Assembly: GCA_023248095.1 (NCBI GenBank)
Contig: JAHFFF010000002.1
Location: 2,717 to 40,230, forward strand
Direction: 5' to 3'
Origin: Candidatus Omnitrophota bacterium
GTDB lineage: Bacteria > Omnitrophota > Gorgyraeia > 1-14-0-20-64-10
Length of the DNA: 37,514 nt
In this document: one piece after another, positions 10,461-35,535 of the stretch
Numbering within the stretch: the stretch's first letter is position 1
Layout of the letters: every line of letters begins with the position of its first letter
The notes under the pieces: generated by a model
What the model was told of the DNA's origin: nothing
The model's database searches: none
Seen by the model: the letters and a program-made list of their open reading frames with translations, nothing else
Made by a program: the position numbers and the translations under genes

Positions 10461-11191
10461 TGGAACGCATTCGACTGGATTCCGTAAGCAAGCGCTTCTC
10501 CCGCGGCAGCGGGACCAAAACCTTGCTCGCCAGCGTGTCCGGAATCTCCTGGTTCCAATCCGAATGGTTTTTGGCCTTGGACCAGGTCAACCTTGCCATT
10601 CCCGACTCCGGGGTTTGCCTGGGGATCATCGGTCCAAACGGCTCCGGGAAGACGACCCTGCTGCGGATCATCGCAGGGGTGACCGCTCCCACGCAAGGCA
10701 AGGTGATGGTCCGGGGGCAGGTGGTTCCCTTGCTGGAGGCCTCTGCAGGGATGCAGCCGGAGCTAACCGGGCGGGAAAATATCTTCTTGAACGGGATTAT
10801 CTTGGGAATGCGCCGGCGAGAGATTCAGCGCAAGCTGGATTCCATCGTGGAGTTTTCAGGGGTCGACAAATTCCTCGACATGCCCCTTAAGCATTATTCT
10901 CTCGGCATGGTCACACGCCTGGGATTCAGCGTTGCCAGCCACGTGGATGCCAACATCCTCCTGGTGGACGAAAGCTGGAGCATGGCGGATGCCTCCTTCC
11001 AAACCAAGAGCTTTAGCCGCCTGACCCAATTGCGTAAACGGGGGGGTATCCTCCTGCTGGTTTCGCATGACCCGAATCTCATACGCCGCCTGGCGGATCA
11101 AGTCCTTTGGCTTCAGAACGGACGGGTTGTCCGGATGGGACCGACGGAAGAGATCCTTAAGGATTATTTGAGTGTTGCAGGTCTGCCGTAA
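10460..11191 (+). CDS. wzt: Polysaccharide ABC exporter ATP-binding protein (Wzt/TagH-like), short form without a C-terminal carbohydrate-binding extension
   Basis: Starts 'MERIRLDSVSKRF' at the ATGA overlap. Walker A 'GPNGSGKTT', signature 'YSLGM', Walker B 'ILLVDE', H-loop 'VSHD'. The protein ends about 30 aa after the H-loop. The track ORF start at 10292 is an upstream read-through inside wzm. Confidence 0.9.
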   Translation: MERIRLDSVSKRFSRGSGTKTLLASVSGISWFQSEWFLALDQVNLAIPDSGVCLGIIGPNGSGKTTLLRIIAGVTAPTQGKVMVRGQVVPLLEASAGMQPELTGRENIFLNGIILGMRRREIQRKLDSIVEFSGVDKFLDMPLKHYSLGMVTRLGFSVASHVDANILLVDESWSMADASFQTKSFSRLTQLRKRGGILLLVSHDPNLIRRLADQVLWLQNGRVVRMGPTEEILKDYLSVAGLP

Positions 11192-18008: not shown

Positions 18009-18629
18009 GTGGCAACAGAGCATCCGCCGAGGCGGCGCTTCTTCCGCCTGCTGCAATGGCAACTGATTCGGACCGCCATCTGGCTTGTGCCTGGCAGCCG
18101 CCGGATTCAAACCCATGACCGCACCCTTTTGGAGCAGGTGATCTTTCAGGAGATATTCCTCACCGGCCGATACAGAAACATCCTGTTCGCCGGCTGCGCT
18201 TCCTATACATCGTGGTACCCTTGGATCTTCGAGTGTTTTGATTCAATCCGCTTTGAGACCATCGATCAGGACCCAGCGAACCAGCAGCATGGGTGCCGCC
18301 GGCATCACCGGGTAGGCCGCTTGGAGGAGTTGGTGAATTCTTCCAATCAGGTGGGGCCCTATGACCTGGTCATCCTCAACGGCCTGTTTGGGTTCGGCAC
18401 GGATGATGCCGAAGGGATCCGCCAGGTGATCTCCGCAAGCCGTAAGGTCTTGCAGCCGGGGGGAATGCTTCTCATCGGCTTCAACGACGTGGCGGGCAAT
18501 GCTCGCTTCGATCCTGACTGGATAAGCGAGCGGGATTTCAGAAGGGGGATCATCCCTGGCACAAATGAGCACGATTTTCTGGCGCAAGGAGAACACCGGC
18601 ACCGGTTCGTCTCCTTCATCAGGAGGTAA
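18009..18629 (+). CDS. Class I SAM-methyltransferase-fold protein with a degenerate glycine loop (function uncertain)
   Basis: 'ILFAGCASYT' (motif I position), 'ETIDQD', 'DLVILNGLFGFG', 'VLQPGGMLLIGFND'. GTG start. Confidence 0.45.
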   Translation: MATEHPPRRRFFRLLQWQLIRTAIWLVPGSRRIQTHDRTLLEQVIFQEIFLTGRYRNILFAGCASYTSWYPWIFECFDSIRFETIDQDPANQQHGCRRHHRVGRLEELVNSSNQVGPYDLVILNGLFGFGTDDAEGIRQVISASRKVLQPGGMLLIGFNDVAGNARFDPDWISERDFRRGIIPGTNEHDFLAQGEHRHRFVSFIRR

Positions 18630-18637
18630 AGAGGTAG

Positions 18638-19615
18638 ATGGACCAGACACTGCTTCTGTTGCTGATAACCCTGGTATCGGGATTGGTTGGTCTAATCTAC
18701 GGCTTTTACGCAGCAACGACAGGCCGGCACGGACTCCTGCGGGTGGACTACAAGTGGGCCATCGGGGTTTACTCTGGCCAAAATCCATTCAACCTCATCC
18801 CCGCACCCGGCGTAAAAAATCCTGTGCTGGAGGTCCGGCACGTGCGCGACGTGAAGGCCTGTCTAATCGCCGATCCTTTCCTGATCCGACAAGGGAACCT
18901 ATGGCATCTCTTCTTCGAGGTTGTGGCTGCTGCGACGCGAAGGGGATCCATCGGGTTGGCGCAGAGCCCCGACGGTTTGCACTGGCAGTACCAAAGGATT
19001 GTTCTCTCCGAGCCGTTTCATCTGTCTTACCCCTATCTTTTCCATTGGAAGAGCTCCACCTACCTCGTCCCAGAAACAGAGTCTCAACAATCCGTCCGGC
19101 TTTATGCAGCCGAGGACTTTCCATTCCGGTGGAAGTTCGTTCAACCCCTCTTGACCGGTAGGCCGTTCCACGATCCATCCCTCTTCTTCCATCAAGGGAG
19201 TTGGTGGATGTTGGTCGGGATCGGAGCCAAGAGCGATACCCTCTGCCTCTTCCAAGCAGACGACCTGCTGGGGCCCTGGCGAGAGCACCCTCGAAGCCCC
19301 ATCGTGCAGGCCAATCCCCATGGAGCCAGGCCCGGAGGACGGGTGCTGGTCGTGGGAGACCGGATCATCCGCTTTGCCCAAGAGACCTGCCCGTACTATG
19401 GCAAGGGCCTGAGGGCCTTTGAGATTATCCGGCTGACCCCCCAGGAATACCAAGAGCGGGAAATTCCTTTACCGATCTCCGACCCGAAGAAAGACCGCGG
19501 CGCATGGAACAGTTACGGGATGCATCATCTGGATATCCAGCCGACGACAGAAGGCCGATGGCTGGCCTGTGCGGATGGGCAAAAACGGGTGCTTGCGCCT
19601 TCCTTTTGGAAATAG
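18638..19615 (+). CDS. N-terminally membrane-anchored protein, beta-propeller (GH43-like) / GINT1-like family candidate
   Basis: TM helix 'LLLLLITLVSGLVGLIYGFYA'. Repeated blade-like motifs 'DPFLIRQGNLWHLFFEVV', 'GLAQSPDGLHWQY', 'FHLSYPYLFHW', 'VPETES', 'HDPSLFFHQGSWWMLVG'. AGGAGG SD at 18622-18627. Confidence 0.4.
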   Translation: MDQTLLLLLITLVSGLVGLIYGFYAATTGRHGLLRVDYKWAIGVYSGQNPFNLIPAPGVKNPVLEVRHVRDVKACLIADPFLIRQGNLWHLFFEVVAAATRRGSIGLAQSPDGLHWQYQRIVLSEPFHLSYPYLFHWKSSTYLVPETESQQSVRLYAAEDFPFRWKFVQPLLTGRPFHDPSLFFHQGSWWMLVGIGAKSDTLCLFQADDLLGPWREHPRSPIVQANPHGARPGGRVLVVGDRIIRFAQETCPYYGKGLRAFEIIRLTPQEYQEREIPLPISDPKKDRGAWNSYGMHHLDIQPTTEGRWLACADGQKRVLAPSFWK

Positions 19616-22378: not shown

Positions 22379-22418
22379 TTTATAAACTTCGAAGCTGTGG
22401 TAAAGTAACTGCTTGACC

Positions 22419-23162
22419 ATGCAAGAGTTCCGCTGGAAAGACAGCCTCAGGTTGGTTCTGCCGCCTCTCCTAGTGGATATTTATCGGGCGGTTCTGATCC
22501 GCTCGGGTTACCGGGCGCCTCTGAGCGCATTGTTAAAGCTCCCCATTACACCCTTGGAAAAAATTTTCCCTGGCATTGGACAAGCAGAGATACAGATACC
22601 CTGTTCGCAGCTGAGTCGGGGACCGGGTGCCTTGCCGATGACAGAATACCTCTTCTTTTCTGCGATCTGCCGTTACCGGCAACCGCTCCGCGTTCTTGAG
22701 ATTGGAACCTTCCGGGGCTCAAGCACGCTGGCAATGGCAGTCAATTCGCCCGATAGGACAGAGGTATTCACGCTGGACCTGGATCCTTCGCACAAAAAAC
22801 CGACGAAGTACCCTCTGAACATTGGGGGGCTTGAAAACCATCCTTTCGCACCCGGGGAGCTGTTCCTGCAGACTCCCTACGCGAGAAAAATCCGCCAGCT
22901 TTACGGCGACTCCGCGTCGTTCGATTTTCAGCCGTTCTACGGCACGATGGACCTGGTCTTTATCGACGGCAACCACGGGTACGAGAACGTCCGCTCTGAC
23001 AGTGAGCAGGCTTTCCGTATGCTGCGTCCCGGAGGCCTCATCCTCTGGGATGACTACTACGACGCGTTTCCTTCCGTGGTGCGCTGCCTCAACGAAATCC
23101 ACGCCTCGCGGCCGCTTCTCCACATTGAGCGGAGCCGGTTGGTCCTCTATCTCTCCGCATGA
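22419..23162 (+). CDS. Class I SAM-dependent methyltransferase (O-methyltransferase family 3 / Methyltransf_24-like)
   Basis: 'VLEIGTFRGSSTLAMA', 'VFTLDLDP', 'DLVFIDGNHGYENV', 'LRPGGLILWDDY'. Start is ATG at 22419 or TTG at 22413. Confidence 0.8.
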   Translation: MQEFRWKDSLRLVLPPLLVDIYRAVLIRSGYRAPLSALLKLPITPLEKIFPGIGQAEIQIPCSQLSRGPGALPMTEYLFFSAICRYRQPLRVLEIGTFRGSSTLAMAVNSPDRTEVFTLDLDPSHKKPTKYPLNIGGLENHPFAPGELFLQTPYARKIRQLYGDSASFDFQPFYGTMDLVFIDGNHGYENVRSDSEQAFRMLRPGGLILWDDYYDAFPSVVRCLNEIHASRPLLHIERSRLVLYLSA

Positions 23163-23944
23163 GACTCTACGGTGTCTGCACCCCTTCTCACCAACCATTG
23201 CTACGGAACTGGCTGCTGCCTACCCTCCAAGATCCTTACGAACTGCGCATCCAATCGTACAACCAGATCGGCTCGGAGGAGCAGCATGTTTTCGGAACGC
23301 CCCAATTTATTCGGACGACGATGTTCAAATTGGACGTCGTGCTGAGAGCCCTTCGGGAAAACTGGGAAGATTTGTTCGTTTTCACTGACATGGACGTGCA
23401 GTTCTTTCGCCCCACCGAACTGCTGCTGCGCCGTTTGATCAATGGTTTCGACCTGCTCTTTCAACGCGATTCCCCGGAAGGGATCGCCTGCTCCGGGTTT
23501 CTACTGTGCCGGGCGACTCCGACCACTCTCCGCTTCTGGGAAAGCGTTCGGCGATACATGGAAACATTCCCCCAGAAAAACGACCAGGATGCCGTTAATG
23601 ACCTGCTCCTCATCGGGCGAGTGCGCCAGCAAAGATATCCCGGGTGGCAAGTGGTGAACCGGATTCTTGACATGGACAACCCAGCCAGTTTCAAGCTTCG
23701 AACCTTGGTCCGGTTCTTATTGAAGAAAAAAAACCAGTTCGGGCTTCGTTGGAACTATCTTCCGAACACGTTCATGAGCGGAGGAACGTTGACCGGCAGA
23801 CCCTGGAAACCCGGCATATCGCTGCCTGTGCCGCAAGGAATCATCCTTCACCACGCCAACTGGACTATCGGGATTGAAAACAAGATTGCACAGCTCCGCT
23901 TGGTGCGCCAAACGGTGGAGAGCCGCCGTGACAACCGAAAATAA
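23159..23944 (+). CDS. Nucleotide-diphospho-sugar transferase family protein (PF03407-like, GT-A fold with DXD)
   Basis: 'FVFTDMDVQFFRP', 'LLFQRDSPEGIACSGFLLCRATPTTLRFWESV', 'KNDQDAVNDLL'. ATGA overlap with the upstream methyltransferase. Confidence 0.6.
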   Translation: MRLYGVCTPSHQPLLRNWLLPTLQDPYELRIQSYNQIGSEEQHVFGTPQFIRTTMFKLDVVLRALRENWEDLFVFTDMDVQFFRPTELLLRRLINGFDLLFQRDSPEGIACSGFLLCRATPTTLRFWESVRRYMETFPQKNDQDAVNDLLLIGRVRQQRYPGWQVVNRILDMDNPASFKLRTLVRFLLKKKNQFGLRWNYLPNTFMSGGTLTGRPWKPGISLPVPQGIILHHANWTIGIENKIAQLRLVRQTVESRRDNRK

Positions 23945-24074
23945 CAAAAGCCGATTTGTGGTAGGCTGTAGCAATCAGGTCGCTATGAGAGATCGGGCTG
24001 CGGGTCCGACAGGTGGAGTTCCAAAATCGTCCCGTCGGGACTGTCGCGCCTCAACCGGAGGTTCCCAACAGCGG

Positions 24075-24773
24075 ATGCCGCTGATCCAAACGCCTGTTTC
24101 GGAGTTCGTCCTTCAGGAAACCTCTCTTAAAAGATTTTTTCGATCCATCACGCCAAAACCGCTATGGCGCCTGGGAGGAACCGCACTCCGCCGCACCGTC
24201 GGATGGCCACGCTACGCAGGGGAAACCTCCAGGGCTCGATCGCGCAGGAAACAGGAGGGTTTCTTTGAGAAATTCTGCCGCGGGAAAGGCCTGGACATCG
24301 GCTACGGTGGCGACCTCCTCTGCGGCAATTGCGTTGGCTGGGATTACGAGAAAGGCGATGCGCAATACTTAAACGGCATTGAAGATACCTCCTTCGATTT
24401 TGTCTATTCTTCCCACTGTCTGGAGCACATGGTCGACGCCCAAATCGCGCTTCGCCATTGGTGGCGGGTCCTCAAGCCGGGAGGGTACCTGATCCTGTTT
24501 GTTCCCCACCGGGACCTGTACGAGAGAAAGAAAATCCTTCCCTCCAATTGGAATCCGGACCACAAGCGTTTTTTCCTGGTTGAAAAAGACGATCCGCCAG
24601 ACACGGTCGGGCTGGTCCCGATGCTTCAACAAGCGCTCCCGGATGGCGAGATCTTGTATGCGAAGGAATGTGCCTTCGGTTATCGGGTCAACCAGGACGG
24701 ATATCCGATGGGGGAATACTCGATAGAAGCGGTCGTGAAGAAACCTCGCCCTGGAGAAGCCCTGCATGGGTAA
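24075..24773 (+). CDS. Class I SAM-dependent methyltransferase (Methyltransf_11/23-like)
   Basis: 'GKGLDIGYGGDLL', 'DFVYSSHCLEH', 'VLKPGGYLILFVPHRDLYE'. ATG at 24075 follows GGAGG; in-frame alternatives are 23985 and 23874. Confidence 0.75.
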   Translation: MPLIQTPVSEFVLQETSLKRFFRSITPKPLWRLGGTALRRTVGWPRYAGETSRARSRRKQEGFFEKFCRGKGLDIGYGGDLLCGNCVGWDYEKGDAQYLNGIEDTSFDFVYSSHCLEHMVDAQIALRHWWRVLKPGGYLILFVPHRDLYERKKILPSNWNPDHKRFFLVEKDDPPDTVGLVPMLQQALPDGEILYAKECAFGYRVNQDGYPMGEYSIEAVVKKPRPGEALHG

Positions 24774-25509
24774 TAACCGCTCGCAATACCTGGCGCGGCA
24801 AAAGGCGTTCTGGAACGTCACGGACGAGAAGATCGCTACATACCAGCGCATCTACGCCGATGGGACTGGGTCGGAAATCCGCTGCCGTACGCATACCCAA
24901 CAATCCCTGGCTCATATACTCGAAGGAATACACCCCCAGTCGGATTGGACCCTCTTGGAAATCGGGTGCGGAAATGGGCGCTTGATGCTCGAATTGAGCC
25001 GTCTCTTTCAGTTCCAACGCCTTATTGGCATTGACATTTCCGAGTCCATGATTTCCTTCGCGCGGAAAAATTTAGCCTACGACCCAAGGGTTGAATTATT
25101 TGTAAACAGCGGGTGCGATCTGGCTATGGTGCAGGATGATTTCGTCGATTTCGCATATGCCAATGATGTCTTCATTCATTTGTTCGACTACGACATTATC
25201 GTCGGCTATTTCCGCGAGGTTCACCGGGTTCTGAAAAGAAACGGCGTATTCCGTTTTAACATCAATCGATTTGACCCCGACACGGCGTTTGGAAACTCTC
25301 TAGGTGGCCGGTTCGCCAAATTCATGTATCGGTGTGGGCTGCGGTCTGCAGGCCGACACCGGTGGGAACCGCGTCAAGGAACGGGGTTCCATGGGAACCA
25401 GTTTATGATTCGAGAGATCCGCCACGCCCTCAAGCAGGGGTTCTTTCCCGTTGCCGAAATCCACCCGGAGGACATTTATCTCTGGTGTACCGTTCGAAAG
25501 ATTCAATAA
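24766..25509 (+). CDS. Class I SAM-dependent methyltransferase
   Basis: 'LLEIGCGNGRLMLEL', 'LIGIDISESMISFARKNL', 'FAYANDVFIHL', 'VLKRNGVFRFN'. 8-nt overlap with the upstream gene. Confidence 0.8.
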   Translation: MGNNRSQYLARQKAFWNVTDEKIATYQRIYADGTGSEIRCRTHTQQSLAHILEGIHPQSDWTLLEIGCGNGRLMLELSRLFQFQRLIGIDISESMISFARKNLAYDPRVELFVNSGCDLAMVQDDFVDFAYANDVFIHLFDYDIIVGYFREVHRVLKRNGVFRFNINRFDPDTAFGNSLGGRFAKFMYRCGLRSAGRHRWEPRQGTGFHGNQFMIREIRHALKQGFFPVAEIHPEDIYLWCTVRKIQ

Positions 25510-25515
25510 TTACCG

Positions 25516-26328
25516 ATGATAAAACGGCTTCGACGCCACATCACAGCCGCACTTAGAGGCATCTCTCCCCGGGAATTTGAAAACCCCAGGGCCCCCTGGA
25601 GGATAAGCCCCCAGGTGACAAGGCTCATTGAACAATTGCAGCCCTACACGTTGAATGACCCCATGCGGTTGTCTCTGCTCTATGGACTGGCGCGCGAAAT
25701 CTGCGAAAGCAAACTGGCTGGCGACATTGTCGAGTGTGGCGTATGCAAGGGGGGTTCCGCCGCCCTCATGGCGACCGCAATAGCCCATTGTCCCAACCAT
25801 CGCATTTGGCTCTACGATACATTCGAGGGAATGCCTCCCCCGGGCCCAAAGGATGCCCCGCTTGCGAAAACCGAAACAGGACGGCTTGCCGTAGGTACAG
25901 AACCCCTCCTTACGCTGTTCCATAAGATTCGGTTCCCGCAAGATCGCATGGTGCTTCGCAAGGGCCTTTTCCGTGACACCTTCAGGGAGCCGCTGCCCAG
26001 CAGGATTGCCTTATTGCATATCGATGCCGACTGGCACGATAGCGTACTTTCTGCATTACAGACGTTCTATCCTGCCGTCGTTGACGGGGGCTGGATTGTC
26101 TTGGACGATTTTGGCCACTGGGAAGGCGCGCGCAGAGCCTTTTACGATTTCTGTCGAACACAGTCCGTCGAGCCCCTGTTGGAACGGGTGGGCTACACGC
26201 AAGCCCTCTGGTGTAAGGGGAGGGAAACTAACCGAGAAACGGTGGGTGCTTATTGCTATGGCATTTACCAACCTGGAAGACAGCCTGTTTCAGATCGCCC
26301 GCCGCATTGCCCCCCAGTAGAAACGTGA
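25516..26328 (+). CDS. TylF/MycF (macrocin O-methyltransferase) family methyltransferase
   Basis: 'GDIVECGVCKGGSAALMA', 'WLYDTFEGMPPP', 'LLHIDADWHDSVLSAL', 'GGWIVLDDFGHWEGARRAFYDF'. Confidence 0.85.
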   Translation: MIKRLRRHITAALRGISPREFENPRAPWRISPQVTRLIEQLQPYTLNDPMRLSLLYGLAREICESKLAGDIVECGVCKGGSAALMATAIAHCPNHRIWLYDTFEGMPPPGPKDAPLAKTETGRLAVGTEPLLTLFHKIRFPQDRMVLRKGLFRDTFREPLPSRIALLHIDADWHDSVLSALQTFYPAVVDGGWIVLDDFGHWEGARRAFYDFCRTQSVEPLLERVGYTQALWCKGRETNRETVGAYCYGIYQPGRQPVSDRPPHCPPVET

Positions 26329-27285
26329 AAACACCAGTTGGGGGTGACGCAGCAGCAACCGCAGGAGGCGCGGGAGTTGGCCCTCTCCCTGGGCCATAGA
26401 GCGGCTAATCTGATTCGGCAGGCTATTCCATTCCATCTGCTGCTTGAGAATGAACCTCTCCAAGGGGTGAAGGGACGGAAGGACTGCCCTGCATAAGTGT
26501 TCTGCCTCTTCCATCACCTGCGGCATGTCCTTGATCATCTTCGCCTGGGGATGGCTCAGACAGCGGGAAAGGATGGCGTCCATCGAGACGATCTTGAGTT
26601 GTCCCCGCCGAGCACACATCAGCTGAAGGTAGAGGGCCCAGTCGAAGACGTACTGCAGCTCTTCCCTCACTCCACCCACTTCACGAACGAGCGAGAGCCG
26701 AAGAAAGGCCGATGGCTGTGCGATTTCTAGGCCCTCTTGGGAGTGCCAAAGAAAATCGAGGACATTCCTCGGCGCGCGCGGTTTCCATCGCCTCAGAACA
26801 CGCCGGGAAGAGGCCTCGATGGTAACGGCTTCCCCTAACAAAAAATCGGGCTGATGGAGACGCCACCTCCTGCCCACCTCCACCAGAGCCCCTGGTTGCA
26901 ACTGATCATCTGAATTCAACCAGTTGAAGATTTCCCCACGGCAGCGGGTAATCCCCTTGTTGACCCCCTGTGCCTGGCCGGTGTCTTTCTCGCTGACCCA
27001 AAACGAAAGCCATTTCTCATACTTCCTTAAGATCTCCACGGAGTCGTCGGTGGATCCCCCATCGATCACAACGTACTCCAGATTGGGGTAGCCCTGCAGC
27101 AAAACCGACCGAATCGTTTCCTCGATGAATCGGCCGTAGTTGTAGTTGGTCGTCACAATGCTGATGAGCGGCCAGGGATCCCCCGTTGGAGTTTGGTCAG
27201 GGAGAGGGGTGCTTGCTTCGGTCCACGGCCAACCGCTCCTTCCGGCGGGGGCCGGTGGGATTTCCTCCAGCCGCGGGCATCTCAC
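26290..27285 (-). CDS. Glycosyltransferase family 2
   Basis: 'ISIVTTNYNYGRFIEETIRSVLLQGYPNLEYVVIDGGSTDDS', 'DTGQAQGVNKG', 'WLNSDD'. GTG start in a GTGA overlap with the upstream giant gene. Its 3' end overlaps the convergent TylF-like gene by 39 nt. Confidence 0.85.
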   Translation of the reverse strand: MRCPRLEEIPPAPAGRSGWPWTEASTPLPDQTPTGDPWPLISIVTTNYNYGRFIEETIRSVLLQGYPNLEYVVIDGGSTDDSVEILRKYEKWLSFWVSEKDTGQAQGVNKGITRCRGEIFNWLNSDDQLQPGALVEVGRRWRLHQPDFLLGEAVTIEASSRRVLRRWKPRAPRNVLDFLWHSQEGLEIAQPSAFLRLSLVREVGGVREELQYVFDWALYLQLMCARRGQLKIVSMDAILSRCLSHPQAKMIKDMPQVMEEAEHLCRAVLPSLHPLERFILKQQMEWNSLPNQISRSMAQGEGQLPRLLRLLLRHPQLVFSRFYWGAMRRAI

Positions 27286-30281
27286 GAGGCCTTCCTCCGC
27301 AGCTCATATCTTCTCAGGGACAGCCAGCTCATCGCAACGTACCATCCGTAGAAAAAACTGAGGAAGATTCCCTGGGCTCCTCCCCACAACCCCCGATGGT
27401 GAAGGAGGTTAGATTTGATCCCCCGGGCTGTCTCCAAGGCCATGGCGCCCCAGGAAAACCGCTCCCCCGTCTCATAGCGGGCCTCCCCTTCCTGTGCGAT
27501 GTAACGCCAATGCTTCTGAAAAAGCTGCCGGTAGGAATCCATCCAGTCGTGCCGGATGAAATTCTCCTCCGTCGGCGTGATTCGAATCACAGCCTCCTGC
27601 CCAGGCACCTCCATGCCCCGATGAACATACGGGTGCAGCCGGACGATTCCCCTCCGGATCAAGATCCTTTTCCACTTATCCTTCCCCCCCCACACCGAAT
27701 GATCCAACGGCTGGCCTTTGAAGAAAAATCTCCAGGGAGCCTCCACCGCCGCCGCCATCGGGTTCCTTCGAGCCGCCTCCTGAAGTTGGGCCGCCAGACC
27801 GGGTGGAATCGCCTCATCCGGATCCAAGAGCAGCACCCAGTCGTTTTTAATCTGGGCGAGGGCAAACTGACGGACTTGCTCCACCACCGGAACCCGTGCA
27901 TGGCGAATAACCTTAGCGCCAAACTGGCTGGCGATTCGGGCAGAGGCATCTCGCGATTCCAGATCCACCACGACGATCTCGTCGCAAAACACAAGACTGG
28001 CCAGACAGCGCGGCAACCAGCGCTCCTCATTGCAGACAACCACCACCGCACTGATCCTAGCGGGGGGCAGAAAGGTCTTCGTTCCGGTTCCCAAAAAGCG
28101 GTCCATCTGCCGCACATCCTCCAGGTCCTTGAGTCCTCCTCGCTTTCTTTTCATCTCACGGACGATTCGAAGGGAGGCAAATTTCATGCCGTCGTAATAA
28201 AAATGGTTCTCCGGATTGAACAGGATGTCGTCCAGACCGGTGACATGGTTGTGCATTTCCTCGTTGTGACTACTGATGTCAGGGGTGCCCGACCTCACCC
28301 CTTCATAGCCGGATTGAAGGAAATCCAGATCGTGGACGTCGCGAATACCGTAGACAGCAAGGATGGCGCTGCTGTCCAGACAGAAGCGCTCCGAATCGGC
28401 TCCAATTCGTCCTAACCATTCTTTGTACATAGTGAAAAGTCGCTCGAAGGTGGGGTGGTGCTGGGGACGGGCCGAGTTAAAGAAATGGATGCTGTTTTCA
28501 TTGAGAAGCGCCCTCGCCAGTCGGAGGGTTCCTTCGTGCGTATCGTTCACATGGACGGCGTCGTTCCCAATGCCGAAAAGGTGTCGAACCCTTTCCTTCA
28601 TTTCCCGGAGACGCCCTGGTTGGTCCGACTGAAGGACAAAAATCCGCAGAGGACCCTCCTTCTGAAAGCAGGCCTCCATCTTGCTGCGAGCCCCCGCGAA
28701 GCTGTTCTCCCATCCTCCCAACCATTTCTCGCTGGCGTAAATCAGGCGGATCAAAAGCACGGGGCCCTCATTCTTCAGGGGTATATCCTTGCGGTAATAG
28801 ATGCGGCAGTACTCCCGTAGAATCTCCTCGATCTCCTCGTCCCGCCCGGATGCAGATGGGAAAACGATCGCCAAGAAACTGTCCTCCCGCAAACGGCAGT
28901 ATTCCAGTGCCATGGCGTCGCTCCATTTCGTCTGCAGACCTCTTCGGCCAAAAATGGCGTAGTCGAAATTCTGGTATTTCATATCCACCGAAAGACACGG
29001 AACATCCCGATCATAAAGGAGGCAGGCTGCCACCCGGTGAGACCCATCGATGACCACGTTGTCCCGGTCGATCGGAACCCACGAGAGATCTTCTCGGGCC
29101 CCTTCCTGCCGGACAGAGTCCAGGATTTGGTCGAATGCCTGCAGGAAAGCGGACAGCCCTATTTTTCCAGAGCTGTCCCCCTCCACGAACTCGTTGAATG
29201 CCTGCAGGTGCGCCGCGTAGAGCTGTCTGCCCCAGTCACTCTGTATTCGCAGGTGCCGATGCTTGGCATAGATGTATTTCGCCATCAGATCAAACCGCCT
29301 CTCGCTGAGCAAGGACCGCGGGTCCAGGGTAAGGTACCGCAGGCGACACGGACGCGCGAGAAGGGGTACCAAGGTGGGATTCAGCTTCGAAGCAGCTTCG
29401 GCGGCGGTCACTTCTCGGGGCTGGCCAGGTTCCCGAAGAACCATGGACTGGCCCCCTTTCTCCATAAAAAGGTCTTGCCCGTTATCCAAAAAGAGGGCAT
29501 TCCCCTGGCTCTTCAGAAACGCGAGAATGGCCGCGCGGTCCTGTCCGTACTCCACCACCAGCATCTGCGGCGCAAACCGGGAGAAGTCCAGACTTTGAAG
29601 AACAGCCAGGTTAAACCCCTCCGTGTCGATGGAAATCAGATCGACATCCTTCACCCCCTGCTCTTCCAGAAGCTGGGTTAAATTCCAAACAGGCACCCTT
29701 TCCTTCCGCCAGCGGGGAGCATAGGATTTCCATCGATCTTTCTCGCTTTCCACGAACGTTGCAACGTCGCTGCCCCACTCCGGCAGATGTGGATAGGAGG
29801 AAACGTGTATGTCTGCTTCGCCGGTCACCGGACCGATGGCGCCATGAACGCACCGAACCGGAAAACCGCGGTAGGACCGCTGGAGCTTCTTGAAATTCGA
29901 ACGGACCGGCTCGATTGAAATCCCCGCCCAACCATGCCGTTCCGCCAGGCGCCGCACGTTGCTGTAATGAACACCGTCGAACGCCCCCACCTCGACGAAG
30001 AACCTGCAACGCGGCGGATGGCTTCTGAAGTAGCCCTCGATGACCTCGTCCTGACCGGATTGAGCGTAAAACCCCCGCATCTGCTTGGGAAACTCACGAG
30101 CAAACCAGAATTCCGGCTGGAGAATCATCACGGCGGCACAGGCCCTCTCGGCCAGGGAATTCCAGCCGAGCCTGTGGAACAACTTCGCCGCCAACCAAAG
30201 GAGCCGCCACAATCCCAGAAAATTCAGGAAGCGGCTCCTCCTCAGGAGCCCTTTCAATATCCGACGCAAGCGGGGCTTCAC
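27282..30281 (-). CDS. Multidomain protein: N-terminal hydrophobic segment, FkbM-family methyltransferase, about 430 aa unassigned central region, C-terminal GT2 (WaaE-like)
   Basis: FkbM domain: 'FVEVGAFDGVHYSNVRRLAERHGWAGISIEPVRSNFKKLQRS' and 'VDLISIDTEGFNLAVLQSL' (about 29544-30005). GT2 domain: 'ISAVVVVCNEERWLPRCLASL..IVVVDLESRD', 'LLLDPDEAIP' (about 27354-28058). The centre contains 'VIDGSHRVAAC' and 'SSAILAVYGIRDVHDLDF'. Preferred start is the GTG at 30281 (GTGA overlap with the TagF-like stop, GGGGAGAG upstream). The track start at 30353 would add 24 aa. Confidence 0.8.
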   Translation of the reverse strand: MKPRLRRILKGLLRRSRFLNFLGLWRLLWLAAKLFHRLGWNSLAERACAAVMILQPEFWFAREFPKQMRGFYAQSGQDEVIEGYFRSHPPRCRFFVEVGAFDGVHYSNVRRLAERHGWAGISIEPVRSNFKKLQRSYRGFPVRCVHGAIGPVTGEADIHVSSYPHLPEWGSDVATFVESEKDRWKSYAPRWRKERVPVWNLTQLLEEQGVKDVDLISIDTEGFNLAVLQSLDFSRFAPQMLVVEYGQDRAAILAFLKSQGNALFLDNGQDLFMEKGGQSMVLREPGQPREVTAAEAASKLNPTLVPLLARPCRLRYLTLDPRSLLSERRFDLMAKYIYAKHRHLRIQSDWGRQLYAAHLQAFNEFVEGDSSGKIGLSAFLQAFDQILDSVRQEGAREDLSWVPIDRDNVVIDGSHRVAACLLYDRDVPCLSVDMKYQNFDYAIFGRRGLQTKWSDAMALEYCRLREDSFLAIVFPSASGRDEEIEEILREYCRIYYRKDIPLKNEGPVLLIRLIYASEKWLGGWENSFAGARSKMEACFQKEGPLRIFVLQSDQPGRLREMKERVRHLFGIGNDAVHVNDTHEGTLRLARALLNENSIHFFNSARPQHHPTFERLFTMYKEWLGRIGADSERFCLDSSAILAVYGIRDVHDLDFLQSGYEGVRSGTPDISSHNEEMHNHVTGLDDILFNPENHFYYDGMKFASLRIVREMKRKRGGLKDLEDVRQMDRFLGTGTKTFLPPARISAVVVVCNEERWLPRCLASLVFCDEIVVVDLESRDASARIASQFGAKVIRHARVPVVEQVRQFALAQIKNDWVLLLDPDEAIPPGLAAQLQEAARRNPMAAAVEAPWRFFFKGQPLDHSVWGGKDKWKRILIRRGIVRLHPYVHRGMEVPGQEAVIRITPTEENFIRHDWMDSYRQLFQKHWRYIAQEGEARYETGERFSWGAMALETARGIKSNLLHHRGLWGGAQGIFLSFFYGWYVAMSWLSLRRYELRRKAS

Positions 30282-31552
30282 ACCCAATCTCTCCCCTGAA
30301 GACAGCGGCTTAATTCCACGGCCTTCGCCCAACGCGCAGACTGTGGGCCGCACATCCTTCCCAAGGTGAGAAGGACCCTCACAACACGCTGGGCTGCCTC
30401 GCCCGCATACGGAAGAAAGGCCTTCTTCAATCTAAGTCTCCCTATCCGATGCCGCTCCGGGTGCCCCAGCGCGTGACGGCACTTCTCCGCCAGTCCTTCC
30501 AAGTCGGTAAAAGAATCCGCACCCTCTCGATACATCTGGTGCACCTGAGGGTCGAAGAAGGAAAATTGCGGATTGTCGAAAAATAGAATGGGACGGTCGA
30601 GGAGGGTGAATTCTATCAGGATGGAGCTGTGATCGGCCATCAGCAGGTCGGCCGCATTGAGATAGGGCATCTCGTTCTCATCCTGCAGAACTCGGAAGTG
30701 TGGATGCCGTCTCTGCAAAGACTCCAGTTCTTCTAGCGCAAGTGACTGGGTCGGCGAATCCTCCGCATGAATCCTTATCCAGAATCCCTCATGGGCAATC
30801 TGAATGACATTGTACTCACTCGCCTCTCGTAGTAACCGATGGGCAACCTCTGCCCCCCAAGCCCCCAAGAGGGACTGGGGACACCAGTGGCTGCTGATCA
30901 GAATCGTTTTGCGGTTCGTCGGGAGCCCAAGGTTACTCAAGGTTTGCTCTCTGGAGAATCTCCCCTGGATCAGCGCATCCCCCTTGGGGAACCCCACAGG
31001 GAAGAAAAGGCGGGATCCATCAGCAAACAGCGGTGGCGCCGCATTTCGTAAATAGGACAGCTCAGCCTCCGAGAAACCGAAATAGAGCCGGAATTGGGGA
31101 CTTGCGGCCCTTTTAATCGAGTCTGTTTCGATACCAAAGCCGGTGCCATGATTCAAGAATGTGTGGGTCGAATCCCGAAGGAACCATTTATCGCACAGGT
31201 GTGGATAAATAACGTAATGCCACTTGGATAAACTGGCCCAGACCCTACTCACTCCGTACTTCTTCCAAACCGCGTTGAATTCTGCCGTGGGGGGCATCCT
31301 TCCACCGACCGTCATCAGAAGACCGATCTGGACGGCTGGCTCCTGCTTGAGTGCCTCGATTACAGGGAGAGCGCTGTAGAAACCATTTGGCGTACTGAGC
31401 ACAAATAGGATACGGAGCGGACCGATTCTCTCGTAGAGGGCATCATCGATTCGACGCAGGAGGGCGCCAATCCGGCTGTCCCGGAGGCCCTTCAGGCGTT
31501 TGACGAACCGTTTGGATATCTCCACAGGCTTTAGTTTACCAGAAGAAATCAA
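30278..31552 (-). CDS. CDP-glycerol glycerophosphotransferase family protein (TagB/TagF-like)
   Basis: C-terminal 'NAADLLMADHSSILIEFTLLDRPILFFDNP' (the family's 'DYSS...D.P.i.F' region) and 'ILISSHWCPQSL'. Apparent TTG start. Confidence 0.65.
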   Translation of the reverse strand: MISSGKLKPVEISKRFVKRLKGLRDSRIGALLRRIDDALYERIGPLRILFVLSTPNGFYSALPVIEALKQEPAVQIGLLMTVGGRMPPTAEFNAVWKKYGVSRVWASLSKWHYVIYPHLCDKWFLRDSTHTFLNHGTGFGIETDSIKRAASPQFRLYFGFSEAELSYLRNAAPPLFADGSRLFFPVGFPKGDALIQGRFSREQTLSNLGLPTNRKTILISSHWCPQSLLGAWGAEVAHRLLREASEYNVIQIAHEGFWIRIHAEDSPTQSLALEELESLQRRHPHFRVLQDENEMPYLNAADLLMADHSSILIEFTLLDRPILFFDNPQFSFFDPQVHQMYREGADSFTDLEGLAEKCRHALGHPERHRIGRLRLKKAFLPYAGEAAQRVVRVLLTLGRMCGPQSARWAKAVELSRCLQGRDWV

Positions 31553-31639
31553 ACCTGCTAAAATAAGCGTCGTGGTTTCCCCTGAAAGGTTCCGCCACTC
31601 TAAGAGGCGCTTGTCCGTTTACCCCGGGTATCGTGTCGA
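31553..31639. promoter_or_regulatory. Divergent intergenic region between the TagF-like operon (-) and gmd-fcl (+) (promoters presumed)
   Basis: 87-nt non-coding gap between divergent gene blocks. No confident promoter hexamers identified. Confidence 0.3.
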
Positions 31640-33594
<1,955 letters not shown>

Positions 33595-33639: not shown

Positions 33640-35535
33640 ATGGCAGACGAAAGAGAATTTGATCTCTCCGATGAGGGGCAGGCCCCGCACCACATCGTCC
33701 AGATAGATAAAGAGGGGCTGATGCGGGTCTTAAGGACCCGGGACCTCTTTGCCCTCGGGTTCAGCGACGTCGGCTCCTCCATCTATTACGCCCTGGGGGT
33801 CACCACCCTCTACGCCCTGGGAGCAACCCCTCTTGCCCTGGCCCTGGCCGGCATCGCCTTCTTCTGCACCACCCTGACCTACGCCGAGATGGCCTCCGCT
33901 CTGCCGGAGGCCGGCGGTTCTGCCAGCTTCGCACGGCATGCCTTCAACGATCTAGTTTCCTTCATTGCCGGCTGGGCCCTTCTCCTGGATTACATCGTGA
34001 CGATCGCGATCTCCGCCTTCACCGTGGGCCCATACCTGGCTTATTTCTTCCCGCCCTTAAAGCTGGCCTTCGCAAATATCCCCTTCAGCCTGATGGTGCT
34101 GGGAGTGCTTCTCACCCTCAACATCATCGGGATCAAGGAGTCCACCCGTATTTCGCTGCTCCTGTGCCTCTTTGCCATTGCCACCCAGTTGACGATCATC
34201 GTCATCGGCGCGCTGTTCCTGCTTAATCTGCCTTACCTAGCACACCACATGCGAATCGGGGTATTGGGAATGGATTGGTCCCCGACGTGGCCTCAGTTCT
34301 GGAAGGGGGTCTCGATGGCCATGGTGGCCTACATCGGGATTGAGTCCATCGCCCAGTTGGGGGGGGAGGCGCGTCGGCCTGGTCGAACAGTTCCTCGCGC
34401 AATGCTGCTGACGATGGCAACCCTGTTCGTGATGTACTTTGGAATCTCGACCATCGCCCTCTCTGCCATCCATCCGAAGATTCTTTCCACCCAGTATCTG
34501 GCGGATCCGCTGGCTGGAATCGCCGCCGCCTTGCCGGTGGGAAGTCGATTCCTAGCGCCGTGGGTTGGGATTTTGGGAGCCACCATCCTGTTCGTGGCGG
34601 CCAACGCCGGATTGATCGGCGCCTCCCGGATGACCTTCGCCATGGGGGAATACTATCAGGTCCCAAGGGTCTTCTACCGGCTCCATCCCAAGTTCAGGAC
34701 GCCGTATGTTTCCCTAGCGATGTTCGCCGGGCTGGCGGCCATCGTGATCCTGGTCGCCAAGCAGCTGACCTTTATCGCCGATCTTTACAATTTCGGCGCG
34801 ATGCTGGCCTTCAGCCTGGCCCATCTTTCCCTGTTGGGTTTGCGGGTACGCCAGCCGAATCTTGAGCGGCCGTTCAAGATCCCCTTCAACATTAGGTTCG
34901 GCCGAAGCAAGCTGCCGATCACCGCCATCATCGGTTTGCTGTCCACCATCGCCGTCTGGATCGACGTCGTGATCAGCAAGCCGGCCGGCCGGAATCTCGG
35001 CTTCGTCTGGATGGGGGTCGGCCTGATCTGCTATCTCGCCTACCGCAAGAAACAGCGGATCTCTGCCACCGGCCGCGTGGAGATCGAACGGGTCAAGATG
35101 CCGGAGTTTGAGGCGCTGAAAACCCGAAGAATCCTGGTGCCTACTCTCGGGGGGACCTATACGGAGAACCTGCAGATGGCCTGCGAATTGGCCAAGACCC
35201 GCGGGGCGGATGTTACCGCTTTGTACGTGATCGAAATCCCCGCCACCCTTCCGCTCGATACCTTTTTGCCGGACCGGCTGGCCGACGCGGACGTGGCCTT
35301 GAAAAGGGCTCAGGCCATCGGACGAGAGTTTGAAGTGGCGGTAGCCACCAACCTCCTGCAGGCTCGATCGGCAGGGCAGGCGATTGTGGACCTGGCCAAG
35401 GAGAAAAAGTACGACGCGATCATTATGGGAACCTCTTACCGTCGCGGCGCCTCCGCCTGGCTCGGGGCCACGACGGAGTACGTCATCCGCAACGCCCCCT
35501 GCCGGGTCCTGATCTGCAAAGCCGCCACGAAGTGA
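33640..35535 (+). CDS. APC-superfamily amino acid/polyamine permease fused to a C-terminal universal stress protein (USP) domain
   Basis: About 12 hydrophobic helices with 'GSSIYYALG' and 'LTYAEMASALPEAGGSASF'. C-terminal 'ILVPTLGG..ALYVIE...AIIMGTSYRRGASAWLGATTEYVIRNAPCRVLI' (USP ATP-binding type motif). Confidence 0.85.
   Translation: MADEREFDLSDEGQAPHHIVQIDKEGLMRVLRTRDLFALGFSDVGSSIYYALGVTTLYALGATPLALALAGIAFFCTTLTYAEMASALPEAGGSASFARHAFNDLVSFIAGWALLLDYIVTIAISAFTVGPYLAYFFPPLKLAFANIPFSLMVLGVLLTLNIIGIKESTRISLLLCLFAIATQLTIIVIGALFLLNLPYLAHHMRIGVLGMDWSPTWPQFWKGVSMAMVAYIGIESIAQLGGEARRPGRTVPRAMLLTMATLFVMYFGISTIALSAIHPKILSTQYLADPLAGIAAALPVGSRFLAPWVGILGATILFVAANAGLIGASRMTFAMGEYYQVPRVFYRLHPKFRTPYVSLAMFAGLAAIVILVAKQLTFIADLYNFGAMLAFSLAHLSLLGLRVRQPNLERPFKIPFNIRFGRSKLPITAIIGLLSTIAVWIDVVISKPAGRNLGFVWMGVGLICYLAYRKKQRISATGRVEIERVKMPEFEALKTRRILVPTLGGTYTENLQMACELAKTRGADVTALYVIEIPATLPLDTFLPDRLADADVALKRAQAIGREFEVAVATNLLQARSAGQAIVDLAKEKKYDAIIMGTSYRRGASAWLGATTEYVIRNAPCRVLICKAATK

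Follow-up and report, generated by a model that had tools for sequence, protein, structure and literature searches.

The window analysed here, a 37,514-nt stretch of a contig from a Candidatus Omnitrophota bacterium, contained three minus-strand genes in the order TagF-like gene, fusion gene, and second GT2 gene. These genes were joined by the 4-nt GTGA overlaps claimed in an earlier sequence-only reading (nt 30281–30278 and 27285–27282, read directly from the sequence), and GGAG or GGAGG was located 8–10 nt upstream of each GTG start. With its start at the GTG of the overlap, the fusion protein had 999 aa, an identical call being present in the public assembly, and the TagF-like protein had 415 aa (nt 30278–31525) in the public gene calls on the same metagenome contig. 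Residue numbers of the Pfam domains of the fusion given below are those of the 1023-aa longest ORF, not of the 999-aa public call. Wzm and Wzt were both encoded in the window; by Pfam, Wzt was of the short, NBD-only form and thus lacked the cap-binding C-terminal domain, as had been noted before. The fusion comes from a heavily methylating surface-glycan locus, and its features are listed in Table 1.

Table 1 Features of the three-gene unit, the domains of the fusion protein, and the adjoining genes
Feature	Position (nt)	Strand	Remarks
TagF-like gene	30278..31552	-	PF04464; putative polyol-/glycerol-phosphate transferase; first in the unit
Fusion protein, FkbM + three-fold nucleotide module + GT2	27282..30281	-	ORF; GTG start in overlap
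N-terminal amphipathic segment, residues 17–36 of 999	30174..30233	-	Kyte-Doolittle 19-aa mean 1.12 (1.1); R/K inside
FkbM-family SAM-dependent methyltransferase domain	29502..29993	-	PF05050, 8.8e-14; TIGR01444
Module domain 1, ParB/sulfiredoxin (Srx)-like	28887..29339	-	Invariant G-x-H-R; Foldseek
Module domain 2, nucleoside-diphosphate-kinase (NDK)-like	28467..28886	-	His 28551–28553, Asp 28542–28544
Module domain 3, small pol-beta-type nucleotidyltransferase (NTase)-like	28092..28466	-	SS-x12-DLD at 28323–28373
GT2 domain (GT2a)	27372..28064	-	Glyco_tranf_2_4 / GmaR-like subfamily; PF00535, 5.5e-14
C-terminal aromatic/hydrophobic helix, residues 971–989	27315..27371	-	Kyte-Doolittle 19-aa mean 1.29
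Second GT2 (GT2b)	26290..27285	-	PF00535, 3.2e-23; coupled via GTGA, GGAGG upstream
GDP-mannose 4,6-dehydratase (Gmd) and GDP-fucose-synthase-like (GFS) genes	31640..33594	+	Pfam; transcribed divergently from the three-gene unit

The FkbM domain matched PF05050 over residues 121–284 (52.4 bits versus a cut-off of 22.7) as well as the NCBIfam model TIGR01444 (52.8 bits versus 37.7), and was similar to the giant multi-GT proteins of two related loci, L003 and L012 (phmmer 3e-82 and 3e-70). GT2a matched PF00535 over residues 768–876 (52.9 bits) and GmaR in the PDB (22ao, 5.7e-10). These matches bear out the earlier assignment of an FkbM domain and a C-terminal GT2 to one large protein, and the GT2 was indeed paralogous to the stand-alone GT2 at nt 2393–3268, with 28% identity over 202 aa (E 5e-15); when compared, GT2a and the downstream GT2b were unrelated. 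The N-terminal part, previously described as a hydrophobic segment, was amphipathic instead, with a hydropathy below the usual transmembrane range, and was unconvincing as a transmembrane helix. It may be a peripheral membrane anchor, and the C-terminal helix may likewise serve as an anchor at the membrane interface.

Residues ~300–765 of the 1023-aa ORF had no match in Pfam, NCBIfam or PDB sequences, in line with the earlier remark that this centre belonged to no nameable family; nor did Pfam (E≤5) match this part in any of 79 members of the family. The AF2 model of the centre (residues 276–741) had a pLDDT of 95.2 and a pTM of 0.93. As modelled, the centre is a compact, rigid unit of ~420 aa composed of ParB/Srx-like, NDK-like and pol-beta NTase-like folds, designated here as the module. 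It is previously undescribed, having neither a Pfam or NCBIfam entry nor a solved structure, and no mention of it was found in the searchable literature.

Domain 1 possessed the sequence DGSHR at nt 29034–29048, which belongs to a motif [D/N]-G-x-H-R with G138, H140 and R141 present in 79/79 relatives; R54, D56, K60, Y63, Y80 and K98 were, like these three, invariant or nearly so. The resemblance of DGxHR to ParB/sulfiredoxin proteins, suggested before, agreed with the Foldseek searches, in which several phage ParB/Srx proteins were matched over 52–126 columns (prob 0.9–1.0) and pNOB8 ParB-N (PDB 5k5d) was matched weakly (prob 0.33). Neither Pfam ParBc, in the scan of the 79 members, nor PDB sequences were matched by this domain. 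Homologues are named "ParB/Sulfiredoxin domain-containing" in UniRef, which implies an InterPro superfamily match. SerK of Thermococcus kodakarensis is a ParB-fold protein and a bona fide kinase that phosphorylates a hydroxyl group (PMC5120207). Sulfiredoxin and SerK share with domain 1 a phosphate-binding motif of the G-x-x-R / G-x-H-R type and probably a ParB/Srx-like fold, but domain 1 differs from them in being welded to two more nucleotide folds. A survey of ParB-CTPase fusions mentions no glycosyltransferase, FkbM or NDK partners.

The NDK-like domain lies between the two motifs pointed out by the sequence-only reading, in which it was overlooked. All of the top 45 PDB Foldseek matches of domain 2 were NDKs (prob 1.0, TM on target 0.5–0.62, rmsd ~4 Å), and NDK matches recurred in the viral library BFVD. 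The residues H302-x-x-D305 were situated on the fourth strand and may correspond to the catalytic His of NDK, on strand 4 (N-x-x-H-G-S-D); each was kept in 72/79 relatives and both were invariant in 45/45 multidomain representatives. Domain 2 and NDK/Nm23 have the same fold, and a conserved His followed by x-x-Asp probably lies on the equivalent strand. In other respects they differed: Phe stood in place of the KPD Lys of NDK (F199-P200 in place of K-P; Phe in 64/79), most of the Kpn loop was missing, leaving only ~25 residues between strands 3 and 4 in the AF2 model, and no significant sequence similarity was observed, hhalign against human NME2 being insignificant and a PDB sequence search reaching NDK at only E 0.89. 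In addition, domain 2 is part of a larger rigid unit, whereas NDK is a hexameric or tetrameric housekeeping enzyme.

Domain 3 modelled alone had a pLDDT of 94. Its residues S362-S363-x12-D376-L-D378, distributed over strand 1, a helix and strand 2, conformed to the pol-beta NTase pattern [GS]-[GS]-x9-13-D-x-[DE], and the two Asp of DLD were kept in 70/79 and 74/79 relatives. The best Foldseek match was JHP933 (4o8s; prob 0.92, TM on query 0.53), and further matches included 4ok0, 2rff, poly(A) polymerases, CCA enzymes and ANTs, all with E of at least 0.08. The fold searches agree with the earlier guess of a pol-beta-type NTase, with the spacing now read as SS-x12-DLD. As proposed before, a methyltransferase, phospho/nucleotidyl-transfer-type domains and a GT are combined in one protein.

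Conservation reached 90% or more at ~35 positions across the three domains, among them His, Asp and Lys residues of catalytic type; G138/H140/R141, K98 and K425 were invariant, and H302/D305 and D376/D378 were kept in about 90% or more of the relatives. In one subfamily, H302/D305 and S363/D376 were lost jointly while the ParB/Srx residues were still invariant, and ten giant-virus-bin contigs matched the NDK+NTase pair only, in keeping with a module made of two parts. Proteins of the ParB fold act as NTP-dependent switches; they have many fusion partners, and their NTP specificity varies (PMC12704722). The module could similarly be a non-catalytic NTP-binding scaffold or switch that would oligomerise or position the enzymes attached to it, either at the membrane or at the acceptor's polyprenyl-diphosphate end. 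The persistence of the subfamily lacking the NDK His and NTase Asp would fit such a role, as would the placement of a rigid block between catalytic domains in proteins that reach up to 4,050 aa. We nevertheless regard it as improbable, since the extent of conservation, catalytic-type residues included, exceeds the needs of a scaffold, and stand-alone copies in operons of single-domain enzymes suggest an enzyme with a step of its own.

The module family comprised 3,844 clusters (50% identity) at E≤1e-3 and 1,692 at E≤1e-30, with members in Bacillaceae, cyanobacteria, Omnitrophota, Chlamydiae, candidate-phyla bacteria and giant-virus bins, thus spanning many phyla, and more than half of them were stand-alone. 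Fusion partners, all glycan-acting, were FkbM (25), GT2 (20), GT10 (5) and GT25 (3) among the 45 multidomain representatives. FkbM domains, from two different FkbM subfamilies, were fused on either side of the module; GT10 was joined to it in proteins P0140, P0162 and P0126, GT14 (PF02485) in P0109, and Glyco_transf_7C was also a partner. The module is an independent evolutionary unit, found by itself as well as joined to other enzymes that act on glycans.

The order FkbM-module-GT2 was also found in P0136 and P0211, and a split cassette, [module-FkbM][GT2a][GT2b], was observed in loci L016, L018, L022, L038 and L011, where separate GT2a homologues adjoined the module (E down to 2e-48 in the first four); in these four, GT2b homologues came after GT2a (E 5e-23 to 3e-44). 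GT2b is the third member of this conserved cassette, whose general form is [module +/- FkbM][GT2a][GT2b]; in the window, its first GT2 and the module have become one protein. The architecture, which the sequence-only reading did not recognise from characterised systems, is recurrent and equals a cassette that is split in other phyla. Within two genes of the module in 34 loci, the neighbours included GT4 (26), GT2 (20) and Wzx (7). Most of the informative relatives adjoined Wzx flippases or lay in EpsG-type eps operons; those of Bacillaceae were in EpsG-type, eps-like operons with no methyltransferase nearby.

In Neobacillus kokaensis, a stand-alone module was part of a five-gene locus, Gmd-ManC-module-GFS-GT10, and the Gmd + GFS pair recurred near the module in the window and in locus L028. 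This repeated link to GDP-fucose genes and GT10, which made up 3 of 133 module neighbours, together with the nucleotide-binding nature of all three folds, raises the question of whether the module services the GTs rather than the glycan, by removing or re-phosphorylating the NDP product and/or re-forming the NDP-sugar, e.g. GDP-fucose. The partners also use different donors (GT2, GT10, GT25, Glyco_transf_7C, and GT14 in P0109), which would suit a general service of this kind. Against it, the enzyme most often fused to the module is a methyltransferase, and methyltransferases release no NDP. Moreover, the donor genes ManC, Gmd and GFS are already beside the module in N. kokaensis, the NDK Lys and Kpn loop are missing, and the sugar-1-phosphate nucleotidyltransferases known to us have a different fold. 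A servicing role is accordingly given little credence here.

The label of the TagF-like gene held in part: PF04464 was matched over cut-off (E 1.3e-8; 34.6 bits versus 22.1), but only by the C-terminal half (profile positions 160–363), and the NCBIfam Tar equivalogs (TagF/TarB/TarF/TarL) scored 12–15 bits against cut-offs of 500 or more. Only 3 homologues, all distant (38, 34 and 28% identity), were detected in 5.8 billion proteins; the two homologue loci examined were without a module, and no TagF-like homologue was found in 41 module loci (best E 0.1). The pairing of fusion and TagF-like gene is thus not conserved. In view of the 4-nt overlap of the two genes, the module NTase might make a CDP-alcohol or other NDP-activated phospho-donor for the coupled transferase; no cytidylyltransferase family, TagD/TarI-type enzymes included, was found in Pfam scans of the long ORFs of the window, whose ORF map had no sizeable gap. 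Given the loci just described, this cannot be the general role of the family, and a gene for the donor may well be encoded elsewhere, beyond the 37.5 kb of the window; we consider such a supply of donor very improbable.

According to the sequence-only reading, the fusion would terminate the chains of the Wzm/Wzt pathway whose genes lie in the window, capping the non-reducing end with methyl, phospho-methyl, or glycerophosphate via the TagF-like enzyme, and thereby setting chain length. The C-terminal FkbM domains of relatives weakly matched V_cholerae_RfbT (PF05575), RfbT being a terminal-sugar methyltransferase. In a cyanobacterial contig (L005/L011), the order was wzm, wzt with Wzt_C (PF14524), [module-FkbM], GT2a and GT2, [module-FkbM] thus holding the position of WbdD. 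The combination of a methyltransferase with a putative phosphotransfer domain mirrors WbdD of E. coli O9a and K. pneumoniae O3, whose kinase, of the eukaryotic protein-kinase fold, precedes a long coiled-coil ruler and whose product is methyl-phosphate on the terminal sugar (PMC3482155), and ORF6 of K. pneumoniae O7, which contains a methyltransferase, an AmiN-like kinase, a CBM, a coiled coil and two GT2 modules (PMC11231755). Pairs of this type making terminal-sugar methyl-phosphate arose at least twice, with unrelated kinase folds (PMC3482155, PMC11231755). Like WbdD, the fusion joins a methyltransferase to a nucleotide-dependent domain, but has ParB/Srx, NDK-like and NTase-like folds, no coiled coil, an FkbM-type methyltransferase and an attached GT2. 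ORF6-O7 shares the overall logic, whereas its 223-aa kinase is aminoglycoside-kinase-like and accompanied by CBM and coiled coil (PMC11231755), and the module had no sequence or fold relation to ORF6-O7. WsaE of Geobacillus stearothermophilus, with a methyltransferase that makes a 2-O-methyl cap and two rhamnosyltransferase domains, is similarly multifunctional and encoded in a wzm/wzt-linked cluster with overlapping start/stop codons (PMC2943079); by its description, it lacks the nucleotide-handling module that the fusion carries between methyltransferase and GT.

A coiled-coil ruler is common to all characterised terminators (PMC11231755) but does not fit the centre of the fusion: in the AF2 secondary structure of residues 276–741 the longest helix had 18 residues, and the linkers flanking the module were ~20–50 aa. 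Nor was a protein-kinase-like or aminoglycoside-kinase-like domain present beside the methyltransferase, no kinase family being found in the fusion by Pfam or NCBIfam and only NDK, ParB/Srx and NTase folds by Foldseek. The Wzt of the window, without a cap-binding domain, is encoded 16 kb from the fusion on the other strand. Wzm/Wzt adjoined the module in only 1 of ~34 related loci, other "Wzt" matches being NosDFY or a TOBE importer, whereas seven neighbour sets had Wzx and the Bacillaceae loci were EpsG-type, contexts in which cytoplasmic chain termination is inapplicable. The TagF link is not conserved either. The terminator proposal thus has support in part only, and we judge it unlikely for this fusion.

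Our preferred reading, plausible though somewhat short of probable, is that the module, as a phospho-group transferase dependent on NTP, decorates the sugar that the GT2s have added and works with the methyltransferase. On the cytoplasmic side of the membrane, GT2a and GT2b would extend a lipid-linked glycan by one or two sugars, and the module would spend a nucleoside triphosphate to place on that sugar a phospho-group, either phosphate or a phosphodiester-linked substituent. By analogy with sulfiredoxin and SerK, the always-retained ParB/Srx site may be the core phosphotransfer site, to which the NDK-like His and the Asp-x-Asp of the NTase would be coupled as an accessory site, and the FkbM domain would methylate the same residue or its phosphate. 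The decoration could be a chain-ending cap in ABC-transporter-type loci and a repeat-unit decoration in those of Wzx/Wzy type.

The high-pLDDT model, the conserved motifs in three folds, the glycan-acting partners, the split cassettes and the precedents argue for a phospho-group transferase. On the other side, three nucleotide-type domains exceed the needs of a simple kinase, the NDK-like domain is without the KPD Lys and most of the Kpn loop, its sequence similarity to NDK is insignificant, and the E-values of the matches to the NTase and ParB folds are weak. To our knowledge, the FkbM enzymes characterised so far (FkbM, NoeI, RfbT) methylate hydroxyls, not phosphates, and the stand-alone Bacillaceae copies have no methyltransferase nearby. 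That the module represents a new class of NTP-dependent glycan phospho-group transferases, with a ParB/Srx core assisted by NDK phospho-His and NTase sites, is possible but rather doubtful. If true, FkbM + module would be a third independent methyltransferase-kinase pair decorating or capping surface polysaccharides, employed by giant viruses as well as by bacteria of many phyla.

O-antigens, capsules, S-layer glycans and EPS are made mainly by multi-module glycan-assembly enzymes, whose "unannotated" segments have repeatedly been recognised as new enzymes; GT137 and the O7 kinase are examples (PMC11231755). The stand-alone module in cultivable Bacillaceae, e.g. in the fucose locus of N. kokaensis, is tractable. 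If the chemistry of the module were assigned, thousands of genes would gain an annotation, and phosphate-type or methylated decorations of many environmental glycans might be explained; the ParB/Srx fold would acquire a non-DNA, enzyme-type role and the NDK fold a non-housekeeping one.

The large fusion protein is the middle member of three minus-strand genes chained by stop/start overlaps, as the sequence-only reading had described, and both GTGA overlaps were read in the sequence (see table). GGAG or GGAGG was located 8–10 nt before each overlap GTG, and the start of the large protein is therefore most likely the GTG at 30281, giving 999 aa. Identical calls (415 aa and 999 aa) appear in a public assembly that includes this metagenome contig. 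Scans for promoters and terminators in 25900-31800 gave counts equal to the shuffled expectation. In the numbering of the 1023-aa longest ORF, FkbM (PF05050) occupied residues 121–284 and GT2 (PF00535) residues 768–876; between them no family was found in Pfam, with NCBIfam concordant, so the centre described as unmatched was indeed so. The GT2 domain shared 28% identity over 202 residues with the stand-alone GT2 (E 5e-15), confirming the proposed paralogy, and was unrelated to the downstream GT2; its nearest solved relative was GmaR. The Wzt was, as stated, of the short, NBD-only form. A hydrophobic N-terminal segment is present, but it is amphipathic, as is the C-terminal aromatic helix (Kyte-Doolittle 1.1 and 1.3), and neither is a clear transmembrane helix on this scale. 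The factual claims of that reading all stand: the feature is real and its description accurate.

Features of the fusion operon and of the surrounding glycan locus in the window
Feature	Position (nt)	Strand	Content or basis
480-aa ORF	938-2380	+	no Pfam match
Stand-alone GT2	2393-3268		
NodU/CmcH-type carbamoyltransferase, longest ORF	2917-4992	+	within glycan locus
777-aa single ORF	4997-7330	+	GT4 (Glycos_transf_1) and GT9 heptosyltransferase-like domain
AsnB-like glutamine amidotransferase	11157-13022		
206-aa ORF	18009-18629	+	no Pfam match
GINT1_N-like protein	18638-19615	+	PF24793, E 1.9e-62
Five consecutive small transferase genes	22413-26328	+	Methyltransf_24, Nucleotid_trans PF03407, Methyltransf_11, Methyltransf_25, TylF-like, in this order
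TylF-like gene	25516-26328	+	convergent with downstream GT2
Overlap of TylF-like and downstream GT2 3' ends	26290-26328	+/-	39 nt
Downstream GT2	26290-27285	-	ORF map
GTGA overlap, fusion and downstream GT2	27285-27282	-	sequence reading
Fusion, longest ORF	27282-30353	-	ORF map
GTGA overlap, TagF-like gene and fusion	30281-30278	-	sequence reading
TagF-like gene	30278-31552	-	ORF map
Amino-acid permease-Usp fusion	33640-35535	+	77-82% identity to proteins named Candidatus Omnitrophica/Omnitrophota

The centre is a large, enzyme-like and hitherto uncharacterised family. With its 466 residues as the query, 165 matches were obtained (E down to 1e-143, approximately 35–50% identity), the majority being stand-alone proteins of 420–500 aa and the remainder fused to FkbM, GT2, GT25, PF02485 or polysaccharide deacetylase; no Pfam domain fell on the centre-matching part of any of the 165. 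A 75% identical fragment (P0081) shared the centre-GT2 junction, and some homologues bear the UniRef name "ParB/Sulfiredoxin domain-containing protein". Exhaustive profile search yielded 3,844 clusters (50% identity) at E<=1e-3 and 1,692 at E<=1e-30, many of them in proteins of 1,000–4,050 aa. Searched by sequence against Pfam, NCBIfam and PDB (phmmer/hmmsearch), the centre gave nothing except a marginal NME5 match, and no consistent Pfam family was found in 79 aligned members at E<=5. This module was also carried by 41 viral-collection contigs (IMG/VR, L045-L085), giant-virus bins among them; Mimiviridae proteins annotated as "glycosyltransferase" matched it by Foldseek over approximately 340 columns (E down to 8e-16), and BFVD matches were A0A481Z0W0, A0A1V0SAX2 and A0A5K0UAL1. 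The module was not described in the literature searched on ParB/sulfiredoxin with FkbM or glycosyltransferase, or on giant-virus glycosyltransferases with NDK or FkbM; a 2025 survey of ParB-CTPase fusions mentions no glycosyltransferase, FkbM, polysaccharide or NDK partners.

From the alignment of 79 sequences, AlphaFold2 modelled the centre with very high confidence as a single rigid body (pLDDT 95.2, pTM 0.93), the domains of which resemble ParB/Srx, NDK and pol-beta nucleotidyltransferases (NTases) in fold and motif, and are not detected by the sequence models of these families. The ParB/Srx-like domain (centre residues ~40–190) carries the sole fully invariant cluster, Y63, Y80, K98, G138, H140 and R141; it matched several phage ParB/Srx proteins in a viral structure library and, weakly, pNOB8 ParB-N. 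The NDK-like domain (~191–330), absent from the sequence-only description, had nucleoside diphosphate kinases as its first 45 PDB Foldseek matches (prob 1.0; TM on target 0.5–0.62) and the strand-helix order of NDK. H302 on its fourth strand and D305, three residues later, form a pattern that resembles the H-G-S-D motif of NDK; each residue was kept in 72/79 sequences, and neither varied among 45 multidomain representatives. Phe stands in place of the K-P-D Lys, and the Kpn loop is likewise unlike that of NDK in being short. Sequence similarity to NDK was not significant; nor did the family profile align significantly with human NME2 in hhalign, where the strand-3 register alone was matched. 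The NTase-like domain (331–455), with a pLDDT of 94 when modelled alone, had pol-beta-type NTases as leading Foldseek matches: JHP933 (prob 0.92), then 4ok0, 2rff, poly(A) polymerases, CCA enzymes and ANTs, all with weak E-values; S362-S363-x12-D376-L-D378 lay on the expected strand-helix-strand.

In a subfamily of seven sequences including Laspinema (P0061, P0092, P0095, P0096, P0108, P0111 and P0113), H302 is replaced by Tyr, S363 and D376 are lost as well, and D305 is lost in five, with all invariant residues on the ParB/Srx side kept. In 10 giant-virus-bin contigs the match was restricted to the NDK and NTase part. From this joint loss and these contigs, the module appears to combine a core ParB/Srx site with a coupled NDK/NTase pair.

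Four loci (L016, L018, L022 and L038) carried a cassette of a ~720–765-aa module protein followed by two glycosyltransferase genes, the second gene being similar to the GT2 domain of the fusion (E down to 2e-48) and the third to the downstream GT2 of the window (E down to 3e-44). An FkbM domain was C-terminal in the first cassette protein of three of them, and the module protein of L038 had no Pfam match; the first two genes were also present in L011, the second being of the Glyco_tranf_2_4 type. Judged from these split cassettes, the fusion is such a cassette with its first two genes merged and FkbM at the opposite end. The FkbM C-terminal to the module in two-domain cassette proteins was RfbT-like; an FkbM of another subfamily was N-terminal in the window, in P0136, P0211 and P0126, and in the giant L003 and L012 proteins, so module and FkbM have been joined independently in either order. 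The architecture had been taken as unrecognised; it is recurrent, since the same order was found in P0136 (FkbM-module-GT2-MT) and P0211 (FkbM-module-GT2-Methyltransf_24). Among the 45 multidomain representatives, FkbM occurred in 25, GT2 in 20, GT10 in five and GT25 in three. Giant proteins of 2,000–2,800 aa (L003, L007-L009, L012) string together FkbM and several GT2/GT4 domains; the module lies inside them in L007-L009 and L012, and in Limnospira (L003, 1748-9793) is a separate, divergently transcribed gene.

Gene context was sampled in 36 genome loci and five contigs obtained by exact look-up, from Bacillaceae, cyanobacteria, delta- and gammaproteobacteria, Burkholderiales, Chlamydiae, Babeliales, Gracilibacteria and Kapabacteria. 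The 133 proteins within two genes of the module included 26 GT4, 20 GT2, seven Wzx-type flippases, four GDP-mannose dehydratase/epimerases, three FkbM, three GT10 and two ABC ATPases; all-against-all clustering of neighbour ORFs was uninformative, giving one cluster linked by giant multidomain proteins. Fucose genes recurred: in the window the operon is flanked by Gmd and a GDP-fucose-synthase-like gene, P0140, P0162 and P0126 are fusions of the module with GT10, and Neobacillus kokaensis (BNDS01000005.1, 7338-13329; L001/L006) has Gmd-ManC-module-GFS-GT10 with a stand-alone module and no further glycosyltransferase or methyltransferase in the set. An AsnB-like glutamine amidotransferase lay no more than 10 kb from the module in L004, L014, L026, L028, L031 and L040, and one is present in the window.

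The TagF-like gene matched PF04464 over its C-terminal half only (E 1.3e-8) and had only three homologues in a collection of 5.8 billion proteins (38, 34 and 28% identity). The module was absent from both homologue loci examined, and none of 625 ORFs around module genes was a TagF-like homologue (best E 0.1). The coupling read from the window is thus real there but not kept in relatives; it is a local arrangement, and the gene was rejected as a conserved partner in general. It is very improbable that the module supplies a donor for the TagF-like enzyme, a role rejected as general because the partnership was not seen at other loci.

The fusion had been proposed to terminate chains in a Wzm/Wzt pathway. 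A wzm and a Wzt_C-bearing wzt directly preceded the module gene in L005/L011 only; a Wzx flippase did so in L016, L028 and L038, and Bacillaceae loci are eps-like operons with EpsG polymerase, Bac_transf, PglD-like acetyltransferase, DegT aminotransferase and MsbA-type ABC exporter. In L012 and L013, the genes close to the module that matched "Wzt" encode NosDFY and an importer of the TOBE type, neither of them exporting O-antigen. The module thus has no fixed link to ABC-transporter-dependent termination, which may be one use but not its general role. In working, the fusion is most like WbdD, ORF6-O7 and WsaE, but it falls outside their group: it has neither a coiled coil nor a kinase-like fold, and the window has no cap-binding Wzt. 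The missing coiled coil and cap-binding Wzt, with relatives in Wzx and EpsG loci, make a dedicated terminator in the window's own locus unlikely, although the gene order of L005/L011 speaks for this reading, which overlaps with the explanation preferred below.

Apart from these genes, the window is taken up by a single large glycan locus, which encodes a Wzc-like ATPase, a carbamoyltransferase, a GT4-GT9 fusion, Wzm/Wzt, an AsnB-like amidotransferase, many GT4 proteins and a GINT1_N-like protein; GINT1_N is the N-terminal domain of plant glucosamine inositolphosphorylceramide transferase. The flanking permease-Usp fusion, by its identity to Omnitrophica/Omnitrophota proteins, points to that phylum as the probable source. 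Four of the five consecutive small transferases are methyltransferases, suggesting an unusually heavily methylated glycan, and the carbamoyltransferase implies a putative O-carbamoylated sugar; its true start is probably near 3270, since the longest ORF overlaps the stand-alone GT2.

The mechanism was approached from domain composition, rigidity, conservation pattern, fusion partners and neighbourhoods. We infer that the module is an enzyme acting on a lipid-linked glycan with a nucleotide co-substrate, because its partners all act on the glycan acceptor, not in sugar-nucleotide synthesis, and catalytic-type residues are kept. A nucleotide-servicing accessory for glycosyltransferases seems improbable, and an NTP-binding scaffold or switch equally so. 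Sulfiredoxin, whose fold the core site resembles, passes a phosphoryl group on to its acceptor. SerK, a serine kinase of the ParB fold, does likewise (PMC5120207), and methyltransferase-kinase pairs that build methyl-phosphate caps arose two times, the kinase folds being unrelated (PMC3482155, PMC11231755). The best explanation as a whole, a tentative one, is phospho-type decoration by the module with FkbM: since FkbM has repeatedly and independently been fused to it, the two may form a third methyltransferase-kinase-type pairing, and the group that they add to the lipid-linked glycan would be a cap where the locus has wzm/wzt and would decorate the repeat unit in Wzx/EpsG loci. The Neobacillus kokaensis five-gene set offers a minimal test system, and the size of the family and its experimental tractability are grounds for interest in it.
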